DNA from: Escherichia phage vB_EcoM_112
Sequence record: NC_024125.2
Length of the DNA stretch: 64,000 bases
Direction: 5' to 3' (one strand)
In this document: piece after piece, positions 2,628-30,193 of the stretch
How positions within the stretch are numbered: the first letter of the stretch is position 1
Layout of the letters: the number at the start of each line of letters is the position of its first letter
Notes under the pieces: model-generated
Told to the model about the DNA's origin: nothing
The model's database searches: none
The model's input: the letters and a program-made list of their open reading frames with translations, nothing else
Made by a program: the position numbers and the translations under genes

Positions 2628-3632
2628 TTAGCTCACCAACTCAATCCAAGCTGGACGAAGTACATCTTGTACCATTTTAACTAATTCCTTTTTAATCAAA
2701 GAAGGATTATCTGCTTGAGTTAGAGTAATACCTTCACGAGAAGTTTCTTCCAAAATATCTTGAACAGTTAGCCCCATCACCTTTCCAAAATCTTTAGGAC
2801 CAATTTCGCCAATTTTAGAAATAACGTTATTTACTCGGTTCAGTGTAACGTAACAAGCTAAAATTCCCACCAATTTGTTATTGGCTTCTGATAGCTCAAC
2901 TTTAGCTTTAATAGGCTTATCAGACTTTTTCTTTTCACTAAATTTAGAATTCTTGCATTTGATAGCGACACGATTTCCATTACGAAGCCAAGAAGGATAA
3001 CAAGGTTTCAATACATATCCTTCAGCGGTAAATACTTCGCCTTTTGCTTCGGCATTCCAGACGCATTTATTTGCATCAACTAATCCAGCATGGTCTACTG
3101 TAAAATTATAATCTTGGACGACAGAATCTAAATCATTTGGCAATTTAATAAGCTCTTCAAATTTACCGCGACCTAAAAGTGGAGCCATTTTAAATTTAAA
3201 TGTATTGCAGAATGATTCCATCATATAATCGTCGACATAAGTCACATCACCACTTTCTGTAGTGACAATAATGTCAAATACATAAAAATCTTTATCGCCA
3301 TAATCGACATTCTTCTGAATGCCAGGTCCAGCGAATTCGCCAAAGACTTGATAAGATACAACTGCTGAAGTTTCCATAATATCTTGTACTGCTTTAATGG
3401 AATCAGCGTAATTCTTTAAAATAATTTCATACCCAAAGAAATCTTCAGCAGGAAGAATTGGTCCAGTACGTTTAGCGCAAGTTACTTTATCACGCTCAAT
3501 AATCAATGAGAAATTTGTACCATGAATCTTTTCACGAGCTACCCATTCGCCGCCAGTCAATCCCAAGCTATAAAGTTTTTCAATAAATTTAGAGTTGTAA
3601 TGATTTTCAAGACTGCTATACTTTTTAAACAT
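2628..3632 (-). CDS. rnlB: RNA ligase 2
   Basis: 334 aa; N-terminus [16 protein letters not shown]...[10 protein letters not shown] contains nucleotidyltransferase motif I (KxHG); matches remembered T4 Rnl2. Confidence 0.9.
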
Positions 3633-3641
3633 AATTAATCC

Positions 3642-3920
3642 TCAAAATGTAATTTCTAACCAATCACCATCACGCTGATCACTATTAACTTTAAAGCTGA
3701 ATCCTTCTTTTCTCAGCCAATCACCAATTTCTTCAGTAATCAATTTATCACGAGCAATACAATAATAATTAAAATGTGTTTTACCTTGTTCAGCTGCTTT
3801 ATTAGCAAGTTCTGAAAAATCTTTAATAAAACACTCTAGCTTAAACTGTTTACTTTTAAGTGCTTTTTCGCGTAATTGATTAGCAAAAGATTCATTTTCA
3901 TAAAGATCATACTGTTCCAT
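3642..3920 (-). CDS. Hypothetical protein (T4 24.2 position)
   Basis: 92-aa ORF, synteny between rnlB and hoc. Confidence 0.6.
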   Translation of the reverse strand: MEQYDLYENESFANQLREKALKSKQFKLECFIKDFSELANKAAEQGKTHFNYYCIARDKLITEEIGDWLRKEGFSFKVNSDQRDGDWLEITF

Positions 3921-4122
3921 TTTTCACCTTTTTATTAATATGTCTTTTTCTATAGACAACTTTTTCTCGAGTCTCAAATTTATTCTTAGCAGTCATAGCT
4001 CGAGCCCATAATACAGCCACTTCTTTCGCCTGTAAGTTCAATTCACGAGCAATTTCAATGAATGACTTTCCAGACTCATGGAGTGTAAACACCACAACCT
4101 CAGTTCTCATAATCAATCTCAT
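3907..4122 (-). CDS. Hypothetical protein (T4 24.3 position)
   Basis: 71-aa ORF, basic, synteny. Confidence 0.55.
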   Translation of the reverse strand: MRLIMRTEVVVFTLHESGKSFIEIARELNLQAKEVAVLWARAMTAKNKFETREKVVYRKRHINKKVKNGTV

Positions 4123-4190
4123 GTTATCGAGTTGGTGCCATTATATACATCATTTTCTGATTGTGTTTTGTGTGCTTTCAAAATGAAGAA

Positions 4191-4206
4191 AGGGGCCGAA
4201 GCCCCT
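4191..4206 (-). terminator. Hairpin terminator downstream of hoc
   Basis: AGGGGCCGAAGCCCCT. Confidence 0.6.
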
Positions 4207-4211
4207 TATGA

Positions 4212-5342
4212 TTATGGATAGGTATAGATGATACCAGTTTCTAAAGCAGTTTTATGAATGATGTATCCATTACGCGATTCTTGGACATCAACTTCTGGAT
4301 AATCTTTCATCATCTTCTGAAGAGTGTAACGATGCAGGTAGTATTTACTATCTGGATCTTCAGTTTTCCAATCTTTACCTTCTTCAGTCATTTTTTGGAT
4401 TTCATCCATAACCCACCAACCGCACCAGATGTAAGCTGAAGTACGATGTGGAAGAGGATGAACATAAGGTAATTCACCTTCTGGTTCCGGAGCAACTTTA
4501 TCAGTTACCTGAACTTGACCTTCTGCCGTAATAGTTTTGCTATCATAATCAGCAGCAGTAACAGTTGCAGTAACTTCAATAGTTTGACTTCCAATAGATG
4601 AGGTATCAACGGTATATACATTAGTTGACCCTTCTACAGGAGAAGAATCTTTCTTCCATGAATAAGCAATTTGCGCTTCTTCTGGAGCATTAGTGACATT
4701 AGCGGTAAATGTAGCCGAAGCATCTTGCTGCACGTTAATAGAAGGAGGAGTCAATGTAACCTGTGGATTCATTGTCTTCTTATTAACCGTTAATGACACT
4801 TCATTAGAAGTAACTTCCTTTGCATCATAATCTGTCGCGGTTACTTGAGCCACACACTTAATTCTTTTTACCCCGCTTTCGGCAGGAGTATAATTGAATG
4901 TAGCAGAAGTTGCTTCGCCCACAGGAGAACCGTCAACGTACCATTGATACGTAGCAGATGCACCTGATGGCTGTGAAGCTAAGGCAGCGGTAAATTCAAC
5001 AGCTGTTCCGATTACTCCTTCCGGAGGACTATTAGGAGTTACAGCTAAGGTAGTCGTTTGTGTCTTATTTTGAACTGTGATAGTTGTAGTAGCTTCTGCT
5101 GTTTCAGCTTCAGCTTCTGGAACTGTATTTGTTGCAACTACTTTAATAGTCTTTTGTCCAGCAGGTCCTTTTAATACATAATCAAAAGTTGCTTCAGCTC
5201 CATCTTGTGGAGCATCATCTACAGTCCAAGCATAGGTAATAGTTCCACTTCCAGTTTCACCACTGGGTGTAGCAGTAAACTGCTGAGTCTGATCTATAAC
5301 TCCAGTAGGTGTTTTAGGAGTTATATCAACTGTAAAAGCCAT
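4212..5342 (-). CDS. hoc: Highly immunogenic outer capsid protein Hoc (Ig-like domains)
   Basis: 376 aa (T4 Hoc length); repeated T/S/V-rich beta-strand Ig-like segments; synteny. Confidence 0.9.
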   Translation of the reverse strand: MAFTVDITPKTPTGVIDQTQQFTATPSGETGSGTITYAWTVDDAPQDGAEATFDYVLKGPAGQKTIKVVATNTVPEAEAETAEATTTITVQNKTQTTTLAVTPNSPPEGVIGTAVEFTAALASQPSGASATYQWYVDGSPVGEATSATFNYTPAESGVKRIKCVAQVTATDYDAKEVTSNEVSLTVNKKTMNPQVTLTPPSINVQQDASATFTANVTNAPEEAQIAYSWKKDSSPVEGSTNVYTVDTSSIGSQTIEVTATVTAADYDSKTITAEGQVQVTDKVAPEPEGELPYVHPLPHRTSAYIWCGWWVMDEIQKMTEEGKDWKTEDPDSKYYLHRYTLQKMMKDYPEVDVQESRNGYIIHKTALETGIIYTYP

Positions 5343-15253: not shown

Positions 15254-16176
15254 TGTATTCTTTAGAGGAATTTAATAATCAAGCAATAAACGCAGATTTC
15301 CAACGTAATAATATGTTTAGCTGCGTTTTTGCGACAACTCCATCAACTAAAAGCTCTTCGTTGATAAGTTCAATTAGCAACTTTTCTTATAATAACTTGG
15401 GCCTAAATTCAGATTGGTTAGGATTGACTCAAGGTGATATTAATCAGGGAATTACCACGCTAATTACTGCTGGCACACAAAAACTGATAAGAAAATCAGG
15501 GGTTAGTAAATATCTTATTGGTGCCATGAGTCAACGTACAGTTCAAAGTTTATTAGGCTCATTTACAGTTGGTACATATTTAATTGACTTCTTTAACATG
15601 GCATATAACTCATCTGGATTGATGATATACTCTGTAAAAATGCCAGAGAATAGATTATCCTATGAAACTGACTGGAACTATAATTCTCCTAATATTCGTA
15701 TAACTGGGAGAGAATTAGACCCTTTGGTTATTTCATTTAGAATGGATTCAGAAGCTTGTAACTATCGTGCAATGCAAGACTGGGTTAACTCCGTTCAAGA
15801 CCCAGTAACTGGACTGCGTGCTTTGCCACAGGATGTCGAGGCAGATATTCAGGTTAATCTTCATTCTCGTAATGGATTGCCTCATACTGCGGTGATGTTC
15901 ACTGGATGCATTCCAATATCAGTGAGCGCTCCTGAGTTATCATATGATGGAGATAACCAAATAACTACATTTGATGTTACTTTTGCGTATAGAGTGATGC
16001 AGGCTGGAGCAGTTGATAGGCAAGCTGCGCTTGAATGGCTTGAATCTGCTGCTATAAATGGTATTCAAAGCGTTCTCGGAAATAGTGGAGGTGTTACTGA
16101 ACTATCTAATTCGCTTTCACGACTCAGTAGATTAGGTGGAACTGCAGGAAGCATTTCAAATATTAGTATACTATGA
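15253..16176 (+). CDS. 54: Baseplate tail-tube junction protein gp54
   Basis: 307 aa; synteny; followed by bidirectional terminator. Confidence 0.88.
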   Translation: MYSLEEFNNQAINADFQRNNMFSCVFATTPSTKSSSLISSISNFSYNNLGLNSDWLGLTQGDINQGITTLITAGTQKLIRKSGVSKYLIGAMSQRTVQSLLGSFTVGTYLIDFFNMAYNSSGLMIYSVKMPENRLSYETDWNYNSPNIRITGRELDPLVISFRMDSEACNYRAMQDWVNSVQDPVTGLRALPQDVEADIQVNLHSRNGLPHTAVMFTGCIPISVSAPELSYDGDNQITTFDVTFAYRVMQAGAVDRQAALEWLESAAINGIQSVLGNSGGVTELSNSLSRLSRLGGTAGSISNISIL

Positions 16177-16224
16177 CAGGGATTGTCAATTCGCAGAGTA
16201 AAATATTAGGAGCAATATAACAAC

Positions 16225-16248
16225 GGGGACCTTTCGGTCCCCATATTT
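16225..16248. terminator. Bidirectional terminator between gene 54 and the alt region
   Basis: GGGGACCTTTCGGTCCCC + TATTTTTATTT. Confidence 0.75.
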
Positions 16249-16539
16249 TTATTTGCGGAATGAAATGAAAGCAGAAACTGAAGCAACTAAACTGTCTTCA
16301 ATATAAACTTCAATTTTTACCGGAGCTTCTGACTCAAATTTACCTGTTACTACACCCTGAAAAATACTTTCAGTCTGTTCTGGCTTTGAAAAATTTTCAG
16401 AAGGAAAAATTCCAAACTTTTTATCTGTTCCGAAAATTTTGATAAATTCATCATAAACTGCTTCATTAAAAGCATTATCAGCAGGAATAACGCCTTCAAC
16501 TACAAGTTCTTGACCTAAAAAGCGTAAAGAAGATTTCAT
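16249..16539 (-). CDS. Hypothetical protein (T4 alt.-3 position)
   Basis: 96-aa ORF with SD GAGGAA, downstream of an early promoter cassette. Confidence 0.6.
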   Translation of the reverse strand: MKSSLRFLGQELVVEGVIPADNAFNEAVYDEFIKIFGTDKKFGIFPSENFSKPEQTESIFQGVVTGKFESEAPVKIEVYIEDSLVASVSAFISFRK

Positions 16540-16546
16540 TTTGTGT

Positions 16547-16600
16547 TCCTCATGTTATGTCAGTAAGACTACTATAACACAACACGAGGGACTTGTAAAC
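16547..16600. repeat. 54-bp perfect direct repeat, copy A (promoter-leader cassette)
   Basis: TCCTCATGTTATGTCAGTAAGACTACTATAACACAACACGAGGGACTTGTAAAC identical at 30140-30193. Confidence 0.9.
16571..16600 (-). promoter_or_regulatory. Early promoter (GTTTAC -35, TATAGT -10), copy 1 of 54-bp repeat
   Basis: Minus-strand GTTTAC-18-TATAGT followed by leader and SD GAGGAA. Confidence 0.6.
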
Positions 16601-16957
16601 TACATTTTGAACTTTTTAGTACGCGTAATAGGCATGCGTCGATTTTATACTGTTTCATTGTTTGAAGAGCAGTATCAAAAACAGCATTAATGACACCAAT
16701 TGGATTTCCACCCAAGTTTTTAAGCTTAACTAATGATAGTTTCTCATTAACACCTATCATTACGATATGCATCATTTTATCGCCCGGCTTAACGTTTTAT
16801 TCGTATCACCGCCAGAGGTGTATGTACAAAATCTAAATCCAGGAAGCACGCTTTCTTCGCCGGCTTGAATAGCAAAAATTTGTGGTATTTTATGCTTAGG
16901 ATTTAAGTTAACAACCGGCGCCGAAGCGCCGTCAAATAATTCTGTAATAAGTTCCAT
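16572..16957 (-). pseudogene. Two adjacent ORFs (16772-16957, 16572-16775) that are frame-shifted paralogous copies of the alt N-terminus (T4 alt.-1/alt.-2 position)
   Basis: MELITELFDGASAPVVNLNPKHKIPQIF...GFRFCTYTSGGDTN aligns to Alt residues ~2-60; MMHIV...LGGNPIGVINAVFDTALQTMKQYKIDACLLRVLKS aligns to Alt ~65-125. Confidence 0.6.
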
Positions 16958-16960
16958 GAT

Positions 16961-19012
16961 TTATCCTTGAACGAACTTGTAAGGCATGTTTGCAATATCT
17001 ATGCAAGACGCAATAATTCCAAGAGATGATTCTACTTTCTGTTTAACATTTGATGAAACAAATGATGCAAAGTCAACTCTATCTTCTATATCACCTGTCA
17101 TTGTAACCAATTCACCAGTTTCCATTAAACGGTCACCGTCATAAATTACCGATTCGGTGAGTTCTTCTGTGGTCATAACTTCAGCTTGAATAAGCTTGTT
17201 GTTAGTTCTAACTGTTCCATCGTTGTAAGATGCATCGGTTATTTTATTAACTTTGACCATTAATCCACGTGGCAAAATGACTTCCATTTCATTTGAAGGC
17301 GCTAAACTTCCACCGGGTAAAACAACATTGACCTTATCAGCCCCAGTAATAACCCATCCAATTCCAACTAAATTATCGCTAGAATTTACAAGTCCTTCAT
17401 CAGTTTTATCAATAGAAACACTTAAACGCTTTTCGTCTGGTAAAACACCCACAGATGAATCAGTCATCCAAGTACCAAAAATATTTGGATATAATGATGT
17501 TGACACAAAGTTTCTAAAATAAAAAACTCGATTTTTTACCATTGCTTCATATATTGAAGGTAACATTCGTTGTGAACGATACAAAGTAATACCTTTTGGT
17601 AATCGTTCACCATTTTTAAAGGCTGAATCTAAATTATCAATGGCTTGTTCTATTTCAGGTGCTGTTAAAATACTTGTACGCTCATCTGGATTATATAATC
17701 CCAAAAGAGCATTATTTATGTCTACATATCCTGAACCTACATATTCACGAATTCCGCGTTTTTGCGCTGGTGTGTATTTAGATGAATCTTTATTTTCGAC
17801 TATAGGATGTAATGACCATCCAGCGGTAAGAGCATATCCACGTAATTCTCTTCGAATAATCTTTGTTTTTATTGCATTCCAAGAATTTTGTACTAACTCA
17901 TTTGCAGCATCTTGGTTTAAATGCGAATGTCTGTTAATATTTCTTTCAAACCAAGCACCTTTATATTTTTCTAAAGTATCATCGACGATAGAAGCAATAG
18001 TTTCTAAAGTTTTTATTGAAGTAATAGATTCTTTTCGTAATTTTTCTAAAGCTTTATTTTTTATTTCTGCATTAATAATGGATTCTTTATCTTCAGGAAT
18101 TATAGAAGCTTCTCTGAATGCCATCCCAGCTGTAACACTGCTAAGAGCATTCTCTAGTGCAAATCCTGAAGTAGAAATTACCGTTAATTCATTAGAATCA
18201 GAAATTAAAGGAGCGTCCGCTGGTTTATTTAATTCTGCCGCTGAAGCCTCAAATTTTTGAAACATCGGTGTTTCAAATCTAGAAGATTCCAATGACTGAC
18301 TTTGTGCAATTGCTCTACGGGAAATTTTAACTTTAACGATTACAGCTTGGTCAGAACGTTTATCATTTTCTTGTGCAATAGATGCTGCAATTGCCTCATT
18401 TTTAGTTACTTGAGCTCCAGTATCTTTATTGATATAAACATCACCGACCTTCGATTCAACTTTAGTAAAGAGCTCGGTACTAATTTCCGGAACCCCTGGA
18501 ATGTCTTCTAGTGATACATTTTTGCGATGTATAAGAATATATGCATACTTTTTATCATAATCCCAGAGTTCCTTAAGAAGGACGTATCTGCCACCTGAAC
18601 GACTACGGATAAGTCTATCAGCAATAACTTGAATTTGTCGAGCTTGGCCAGCAGTTTTAGACTTAAGAATACGAAGCATACAAGCATCAATTTTATACTG
18701 ACGCATTGTTTGCAATGCAACAGTAAAAACCGAATTGATATAATTAATTGGGCTTGGACCAAGACCTTTCAATTTAGCAATTGAACCTTTAGCGGTTAAT
18801 GTAAAAGGAACAATATGCATCATTTTATCGCCCATCTTTAAATCACGATTAGTATCACCTCCAGATGTATAGGTACATAAACGAAAGCCTGGTTGTTCAA
18901 TTGCGTCATCAACATGAACTGAAAAAATTTGCGGTATTTTCTTCTTTGGATTTAAGTTTGTAATCGGAAGAGTAGTATCTTCGTCAAATAATTCTGTAAT
19001 TAGTTCCATCAT
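16961..19012 (-). CDS. alt: Alt, ADP-ribosyltransferase packaged in the head
   Basis: 683-codon ORF (T4 Alt 682 aa); N-terminus MELITELF; late-promoter-like TATAAATA on minus strand at 19033-19040. Confidence 0.9.
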   Translation of the reverse strand: MMELITELFDEDTTLPITNLNPKKKIPQIFSVHVDDAIEQPGFRLCTYTSGGDTNRDLKMGDKMMHIVPFTLTAKGSIAKLKGLGPSPINYINSVFTVALQTMRQYKIDACMLRILKSKTAGQARQIQVIADRLIRSRSGGRYVLLKELWDYDKKYAYILIHRKNVSLEDIPGVPEISTELFTKVESKVGDVYINKDTGAQVTKNEAIAASIAQENDKRSDQAVIVKVKISRRAIAQSQSLESSRFETPMFQKFEASAAELNKPADAPLISDSNELTVISTSGFALENALSSVTAGMAFREASIIPEDKESIINAEIKNKALEKLRKESITSIKTLETIASIVDDTLEKYKGAWFERNINRHSHLNQDAANELVQNSWNAIKTKIIRRELRGYALTAGWSLHPIVENKDSSKYTPAQKRGIREYVGSGYVDINNALLGLYNPDERTSILTAPEIEQAIDNLDSAFKNGERLPKGITLYRSQRMLPSIYEAMVKNRVFYFRNFVSTSLYPNIFGTWMTDSSVGVLPDEKRLSVSIDKTDEGLVNSSDNLVGIGWVITGADKVNVVLPGGSLAPSNEMEVILPRGLMVKVNKITDASYNDGTVRTNNKLIQAEVMTTEELTESVIYDGDRLMETGELVTMTGDIEDRVDFASFVSSNVKQKVESSLGIIASCIDIANMPYKFVQG

Positions 19013-19032: not shown

Positions 19033-19040
19033 TATTTATA
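19033..19040 (-). promoter_or_regulatory. Late promoter (TATAAATA on minus strand) upstream of alt
   Basis: Plus-strand TATTTATA ~20 nt upstream of the alt start. Confidence 0.55.
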
Positions 19041-30139: not shown

Positions 30140-30193
30140 TCCTCATGTTATGTCAGTAAGACTACTATAACACAACACGAGGGACTTGTAAAC
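30140..30193. repeat. 54-bp perfect direct repeat, copy B
   Basis: Identical to 16547-16600. Confidence 0.9.
30164..30193 (-). promoter_or_regulatory. Early promoter upstream of alc, copy 2 of 54-bp repeat
   Basis: Identical to 16547-16600 over 54 bp. Confidence 0.6.

Follow-up and report, generated by a model that had tools for sequence, protein, structure and literature searches.

The alt gene of phage T4 encodes a packaged and injected ADP-ribosyltransferase (phrog_802), and between alt and alt.-3 the T4 genome carries two small open reading frames, alt.-1 (NP_049810, 61 residues) and alt.-2 (NP_049809, 67 residues). According to the T4 RefSeq notes, these two frames are an old duplication of the first part of alt, within which a stop codon and a new start arose. 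They were also listed among the T4 open reading frames that are paralogous duplications of alt by Nolan et al. 2006, who mention a full-length alt duplicate in phage 44RR (PMC1524935). That this sequence originated from alt has been known since the T4 genome was annotated.

Here, the corresponding locus of Escherichia phage vB_EcoM_112 (NC_024125.2) was analysed in a stretch of 64,000 nucleotides, referred to as the window. Comparison with related phages indicates that alt.-1 and alt.-2, together called the stump, are very probably a unitary pseudogene, the 5' stump of a full-length second Alt-like ADP-ribosyltransferase gene that stood in tandem with alt. The stump is a transcribed pseudogene and a deletion scar that had already been annotated, and the refinement concerns its ancestry only.

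Identity of alt.-1 and alt.-2

Over the 3.1 kb around the stump, identity is 99.4% with Escherichia phage vB_EcoM_G8 and 97-98% with T4, whose gene order is conserved (gene 48, gene 54, alt.-3, alt.-2, alt.-1, alt, alt.1, gene 30). The shared synteny and the identity to T4 establish that the open reading frames at 16772-16957 and 16572-16775, both on the minus strand, are the T4 genes alt.-1 and alt.-2. They have the same positions and lengths as in T4 (61 and 67 residues), and profile searches match them over their entire lengths to phrog_23015 (positions 1-61 of 61, E = 1.7e-46) and phrog_15247 (positions 1-67 of 67, E = 8.8e-50), respectively. Translation of these frames would give the peptides LFDGASAPVVNLNPK and IPQIFAIQAGEESVLPGFR of Alt.-1 and NLGGNPIGVINAVFDTALQTMK of Alt.-2. 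The window and T4 have the same deletion junction and the same A4 frameshift, and their stumps differ by few substitutions, for example in the frameshifted tail, which reads SRAIK in the window versus NQAIK in T4. Both frames lie between alt (16961-19012) and alt.-3 (16249-16539), all on the minus strand; alt.-3 is an intact gene of 96 residues (DUF5498) downstream of the stump. The reading frame annotated as alt in T4 encodes 683 residues in the window and carries the ADP-ribosyltransferase domain PF03496 (residues 375-615, E = 1.4e-34); the stump resembles this functional paralog.

The original prediction, made from the letters of the window, had described the two frames as matching Alt residues ~2-60 and ~65-125 consecutively, in different frames. 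BLASTP against the adjacent 683-residue Alt bears this out, with the frame at 16772-16957 aligning to residues 2-58 (63% identity, E = 6e-24) and that at 16572-16775 to residues 64-118 (64% identity, E = 1e-21); the matches are consecutive, but homology ends at residue 118 and not at ~125. The Alt profile phrog_802 matches alt.-1 at 2-59 (E = 8e-19) and alt.-2 at 64-120 (E = 8e-20). At the nucleotide level, the identity to the 5' region of alt is about 68-72% (72.4% over 203 nt in the window, 68.3% over 341 nt in T4), and a one-base gap in the alignment of stump and alt DNA accounts for the change of frame.

The N-terminal 118 residues of Alt that are homologous to the stump include the MELITE motif. 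Unlike Alt, the stump lacks the catalytic domain and its Arg, Ser-Thr-Ser and Glu-x-Glu motifs. A frameshift divides it into frames of 61 and 67 residues where the Alt family has an uninterrupted frame of ~680 residues, and it gives no sign of a protein product. The PF03496 domain is absent, with no Pfam match for alt.-1, alt.-2 or the fused form of 128 residues. For the N-terminal region of Alt itself, the PDB holds no solved structure, its weak matches covering the catalytic domain only. An AlphaFold2 model of Alt residues 1-240 built from the single sequence has a mean pLDDT of 45, with residues 1-117 all below 50.

An intact paralog in T2-type phages

When the stump was searched by BLAST against 50,697 phage records, 488 of these covered at least 80% of it. 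A T4-like minority of the records matches throughout, whereas for most (T2, RB32, RB18, RB3, RB14 and others) the match ends at query base 72, inside a second gene annotated as Alt-like. About 80% of the related Tequatrovirus records carry an intact Alt paralog of 685 residues at the position of the stump. In RB32 and T2 this is a 2,058-nt reading frame exactly between alt and alt.-3 (2791-4848 of the extracted locus in each; 'alt.-2' ABI95018 in RB32, YP_010073850 in T2), orthologous to the stump locus, and the intact 2,058-nt paralog is annotated there in all seven T2-type phages sampled.

The intact paralog is 41% identical to the Alt of the window over its whole length. It keeps PF03496 at ~375-620 and retains both the MELITE N-terminus and an Alt-like C-terminal region, and its L-E-E/SVYDGD site aligns with the C-terminal gp21 cleavage site of Alt. 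It is probably a second packaged and injected enzyme without a counterpart in T4; a search of the literature found no functional study of it. Identity of the stump is 96-98.6% with the 5' end of this full-length gene but just about 70% with alt. In the RB32 and T2 paralogs, the first 348 nt and last 20 nt match the stump at 96-100% identity, and the ribosome-binding site and start are shared. Unlike the stump, the T2-type gene possesses the catalytic domain and the C-terminal region, an A5 run instead of A4, and both copies of a 9-bp repeat.

A hairpin, GGCGC-UUCG-GCGCC, with a 5-bp G+C stem and a UUCG tetraloop, is found in codons 10-14 of alt.-1 (16917-16930, minus strand), 27 nt into the coding sequence of the paralog. 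It is invariant in 20 out of 20 stumps and intact paralogs and absent from alt. The hairpin is predicted to fold, but compared with shuffled sequences the surrounding 81 nt do not stand out (z = -1.2). A role as an mRNA-stabilising or processing element is conceivable.

Deletion junction and frameshift

Two matches at 97% identity connect the window with RB32, one reaching to 16619 and the other beginning at 16611, with an overlap of 9 bp. At this junction (16611-16619, minus strand) there is a single copy of the 9-bp repeat CTAAAAAGT (gene orientation). The window has this repeat once, and the RB32 and T2 loci have precisely two copies of it, one at each breakpoint, at a distance of 1,699 bp. 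A repeat that is single in the short form and doubled in the long one is a deletion signature, and the removal of DNA between direct repeats is the classic mark of slipped mispairing or illegitimate recombination. The fragments are indeed a scar, one of the two possibilities raised in the original prediction.

On the far side of the junction, the last 20 nt of the paralog are still present in the stump, and the final 11 nt of them (TCAAAATGTAG, 16600-16610, minus strand) are identical to the 3' end of the RB32 gene, which encodes KKFKM followed by the stop. The fusion does not keep the frame, as 1,699 equals 3 x 566 + 1. The original TAG stop at 16600-16602 is now out of frame, and the fused frame continues for nine more codons beyond it, into the intergenic region. 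The catalytic domain lies within the deleted 1,699 bp, codons 117-683 being lost.

The frameshift site is located at 16795-16798 (minus strand), where the alignments with RB32 and T2 show an A4 run in place of the A5 run of the intact paralog. The intact genes read AATAAAAACG, and the window and T4 read AATAAAACG, with one A fewer. The shifted frame terminates at a TGA that overlaps the ancestral Met-Met codons, and for this reason alt.-2 appears to begin with a 'new' ATG in the original frame. In terms of the ancestral paralog, alt.-1 is composed of codons 1-53 followed by the frameshifted tail KTLSRAIK and the TGA overlapping the alt.-2 ATG. The alt.-2 frame consists of codons 62-116 in the original frame followed by 12 out-of-frame codons (SKCSLQVPRVVL), which cross the deletion junction and the old stop and reach the alt.-3 promoter. 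Relative to RB32 and T2, the locus carries a 1,699-bp out-of-frame deletion and a -1 frameshift, as expected of a pseudogene.

Programmed -1 frameshifting at the A run was considered and rejected. The site, GAAUAAAACG, contains no X XXY YYZ slippery heptamer, Rfam gives only sub-threshold chance matches at E <= 1, and the length of the run is polymorphic among phages.

Deletions at short direct repeats, as in rII, and frameshifts in base runs (Streisinger slippage) are classic mutational mechanisms of T4. The 9-bp microhomology and the A5-to-A4 change fit both of them but, unlike laboratory mutants, the lesions of the stump are fixed natural variants, present in about a fifth of the relatives.

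Decay of the stump among sister phages

Thirteen T4-type loci bearing the deletion were aligned. They were partly picked for odd annotation, and the lesion frequencies among them are not population estimates. SYGD1 has the deletion, keeps A5 and contains a single reading frame of 128 residues, a state that corresponds to the intermediate expected if the deletion preceded the frameshift. In EC128 and PTE-Eco15, A5 is also kept and codon 6 has changed from GAA to TAA, which turns MELITE into MELIT followed by a stop. JEP6 combines the codon 6 stop with the A4 frameshift, FN has both of these together with an in-frame 9-nt deletion in alt.-2, and in LH2 the start codon has changed from ATG to GTG. 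The stop at codon 6, inside MELITE, is therefore found in four of the 13 sampled phages.

These further independent lesions (codon 6 stop, 9-nt deletion and start change) are those expected of a pseudogene. Given that they vary by phage, the annotated reading frames differ from one phage to another, with structures of 61+67, 128, 92 and 34+68 residues. The alt.-2 frame is open in all 13 phages, the 9-nt deletion in one of them being in frame. This is little evidence of constraint given the low divergence, at which less than one disabling hit is expected by chance.

The frequency of the deletion was estimated with a 77-nt query spanning the junction. It is fully covered in 88 of the 467 matching records, and the remaining records match it over just 43 nt, towards alt.-3; because the collection contains GenBank and RefSeq duplicates, this places the deletion in roughly one-fifth of the records and is not an exact proportion. 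A scan of IMG/VR for the exact deletion junction recovered two contigs only, one of which is phage G8, and a homologue search with the 128-residue form of SYGD1 returned only three matches, of 84-118 residues.

The same junction is linked to an alt gene of 2,049 nt in T4, EC128, FN and PTE-Eco15, of 2,055 nt in LH2, and of 2,094 nt in SYGD1, Geo, SP1 and JEP6. The middle of alt (~17780-18200 of the window) does not align with the alt of RB32. With three alt lengths at one junction and a middle part of alt that does not align, the locus is a mosaic. The association of one junction with different alt alleles indicates, from the alignments, either recombination or recurrent deletion at the same repeats.

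At codon 17 of alt.-1, the old T4 reference NC_000866 reads AAC TTA where the recent T4 assembly OZ209023 and all other phages, the window included, read ACA TTA. A second difference, from the window, FN and RB32, affects the loop of the terminator that separates gene 54 from alt.-3 (GGGGACCGAAAGGT--CC versus GGGGACCTTTCGGTCCCC). Both differences are probably legacy sequencing errors.

Selection on the stump and on the intact paralog

Variation in the 116 ancestral codons, which contain 272 nonsynonymous and 76 synonymous sites, was polarised with seven intact paralogs. The changes private to T4-type stumps comprise five synonymous, ten nonsynonymous and one nonsense, and fit neutrality (binomial p = 0.37). 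The intact genes do not (p = 2e-15), with 26 synonymous and two nonsynonymous polymorphic codons over the same 116 codons. The counts of stump and intact genes differ significantly (Fisher p = 3.3e-5), in a comparison that ignores phylogeny and recombination and that is based on a small, partly hand-picked sample in which a few differences, such as the AC/CA of T4, may be sequencing errors. The neighbouring gene alt.-3, taken as a conserved control, has 16 synonymous to five nonsynonymous polymorphic codons. These counts point to relaxed constraint on the stump, as in a pseudogene, and to strong purifying selection on the N-terminal 116 codons of the intact paralog. The alt.-2 frame taken alone has three nonsynonymous and no synonymous private changes in addition to the in-frame deletion, and shows no sign of constraint, the counts being too few for more.

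An apparent weak constraint on the stump, seen as 16 synonymous to 11 nonsynonymous changes when variation was polarised with two intact genes only, was discarded. With five more intact genes, most of the synonymous variants proved to be shared with functional paralogs, and for this reason the test was based on private changes.

Origin of the stump

Most Tequatrovirus phages carry an intact paralog of 685 residues between alt and alt.-3, and the comparison shows that two lesions changed it in the T4-type lineage. The first was the 1,699-bp out-of-frame deletion between the 9-bp repeats, probably through slipped mispairing or illegitimate recombination, with loss of the whole catalytic domain. 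The second was the loss of one A from the A5 run, probably through slippage, splitting the frame of 128 codons in two. The resulting stump, which keeps the ribosome-binding site of the paralog, would be transcribed by read-through from alt but would specify no selected protein product, and the only functional sequence that it overlaps would be the early promoter of alt.-3, spared by the deletion.

The original prediction had read this region as a decayed duplication of the 5' ~400 bp of alt. The decay of an alt paralog is upheld, but the duplicated unit appears to have been a full-length paralog, shortened by the 1,699-bp deletion. A duplication that only ever comprised the first ~400 bp of alt, with the stop and the new start arising within the copy, is what the T4 RefSeq notes for these two genes say, and as far as the window itself goes, a second copy exists for no more than the 5' ~350 nt of alt. 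Such a partial duplication is nonetheless very unlikely to be the explanation, since the stump is 96-98.6% identical to the full-length T2-type paralog against about 70% to alt, the last 20 nt of the paralog are retained, and the stump ends in one copy of a 9-bp repeat whose two copies in the intact gene bracket exactly the missing 1,699 bp. Taken together, these three observations attribute the shortness of the stump to a later internal deletion. The opposite direction of change, with an ancestral T4-type arrangement and a 1.7-kb insertion in T2-type phages, would agree with the 'apparent insertion in alt.-2' noted in the RB32 record. It is hardly credible, as the inserted DNA would have had to complete a reading frame homologous to Alt from end to end, with an in-frame catalytic domain, the doubling of the repeat in the long form and its single occurrence in the short form are a deletion signature, and the intact form appears to be under strong purifying selection. 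An insertion in T2-type phages was rejected on the repeat pattern, the whole-length homology to Alt and the purifying selection.

With loss from a full-length paralog as the preferred reading, the database notes ('duplication of first part' for T4 and 'apparent insertion' for RB32) would have the history backwards or incomplete, and a single pseudogene would be a more fitting annotation for alt.-1 and alt.-2 than two hypothetical proteins. T4, the laboratory model, is among the roughly one-fifth of sequenced Tequatrovirus records without the second Alt-like enzyme. The new ancestry leaves the biology unchanged, and the intact T2-type paralog is more interesting than the stump.

Expression and the question of a protein product

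The sequence TATAAATA, the T4 late-promoter consensus, is found at 19033-19040 (minus strand), 20 nt upstream of alt. A terminator scan of the minus strand found no terminator-like site between alt and the bidirectional terminator at 16223-16244, and the stump is therefore probably co-transcribed with alt. An AAGGA ribosome-binding site (16964-16968, minus strand) precedes the alt.-1 ATG by 6 nt and falls within the final part of alt. RB32 and T2 have the identical site, indicating that it was inherited unchanged from the intact paralog. In T4, the transcripts of alt.-1 and alt.-2 belong to the same temporal class as that of alt, and the time-resolved proteome contains Alt, Alt.1 and Alt.-3 but not the Alt.-1 and Alt.-2 proteins (PMC9697503 Table S2). 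Given that small proteins are easily missed by shotgun proteomics, this non-detection is supportive and not decisive.

Mass spectrometry has shown that gp21 removes six N-terminal residues (ITE-6) and 63 C-terminal residues (LTE-619) from Alt (PMC5694885). Alt.-1 starts with MELITE/L like Alt and contains the gp21 cleavage motif (L/I)-x-E. The stump shares this N-terminal propeptide motif with the internal head proteins of T4 (IPs and Alt), the E6 codon being a stop in the four sister phages described above. The original prediction had regarded the Alt N-terminus as the part processed during head packaging and the fragments as a possible source of short head-targeted peptides. The N-terminus is indeed processed, but six residues are removed and not the ~120 covered by the fragments (PMC5694885). 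The peptides themselves find no support, given the codon 6 stop, the private substitutions that look neutral and the proteins not being detected in T4 (PMC9697503), and a retained head-targeting role is very improbable.

It may be considered whether Alt.-1, Alt.-2 or both are functional micro-proteins, for example with prohead entry led by MELITE or modulation of Alt packaging. The alt.-1 frame has the AAGGA site and the ITE-6 motif, the ATGA overlap of stop and start could allow re-initiation at alt.-2, transcripts exist in T4, and the alt.-2 frame is open in all sampled phages. This would be surprising when the stop at codon 6 destroys the ITE motif in four of 13 phages and the start codon is changed in one more, when the structure of the reading frames differs among phages and the private substitutions look neutral, and when neither a Pfam domain nor detection in the T4 proteome speaks for a protein. 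The specific version in which a 61-residue Alt.-1, translated from the intact ribosome-binding site, would be drawn into the prohead core via MELITE and be packaged or compete with Alt, with Alt.-2 made by re-initiation at ATGA, has slightly less in its favour still. Ribosomal or transcriptional slippage at the A run, restoring an N-terminal-domain protein of 128 residues, would agree with the position of the frameshift within a homopolymer and with the plain 128-residue frame of SYGD1. It is the least plausible of these products, as AAU AAA ACG does not have the X XXY YYZ form of a slippery heptamer and no stimulatory structure and no match to an Rfam family were found. Four A are also far short of the runs that give transcriptional slippage, and the codon 6 stop in the A5 phages EC128 and PTE-Eco15 argues against selection for the 128-residue product.

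The alt.-3 promoter and neighbouring sequences

The tail of the alt.-2 frame is overlapped by a 54-bp early-promoter cassette for alt.-3 (16547-16600, minus strand). It comprises the -35 element (G)TTTACA at 16599-16594, a 17-nt spacer and TATAGT, the extended -10 TGTTATAGT ending at 16571, and beyond it the 5'UTR and a GAGGA ribosome-binding site. This is the best promoter-like site in the region, with 10 of 12 matches and the upstream TG, and the equivalent site in phage ASO78A is annotated as a T4 early promoter. In T4, alt.-3 is early in both RNA and protein (PMC9697503 Table S2). The deletion endpoint lies 11 nt upstream of the promoter, and the expression of alt.-3 is thus spared.

The cassette is one copy of a 54-bp exact direct repeat (GTTTACAAGTCCCTCGTGTTGTGTTATAGTAGTCTTACTGACATAACATGAGGA), found at 16547-16600 and 30140-30193, both on the minus strand and 13.6 kb apart. 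The first copy is upstream of alt.-3 and the second is upstream of alc, between rnlA and alc; no exact repeat of 54 bp is expected by chance. T4 has the same pair, its alt.-3 copy differing by one base. In its make-up the repeat resembles the PeSLs, mobile promoter cassettes known from T4-type phages (PMC2839356, PMC4122927).

On the plus strand, gene 54, which encodes the baseplate tail-tube initiator, has 307 residues in the window versus 320 in T4 and 321 in RB32. Near its end (~16165-16176 of the window), a 2-nt insertion (ATTAGTATAC versus ATTA--ATAC) causes a frameshift and leaves the protein truncated at its C-terminus. The same insertion is present in phage FN.
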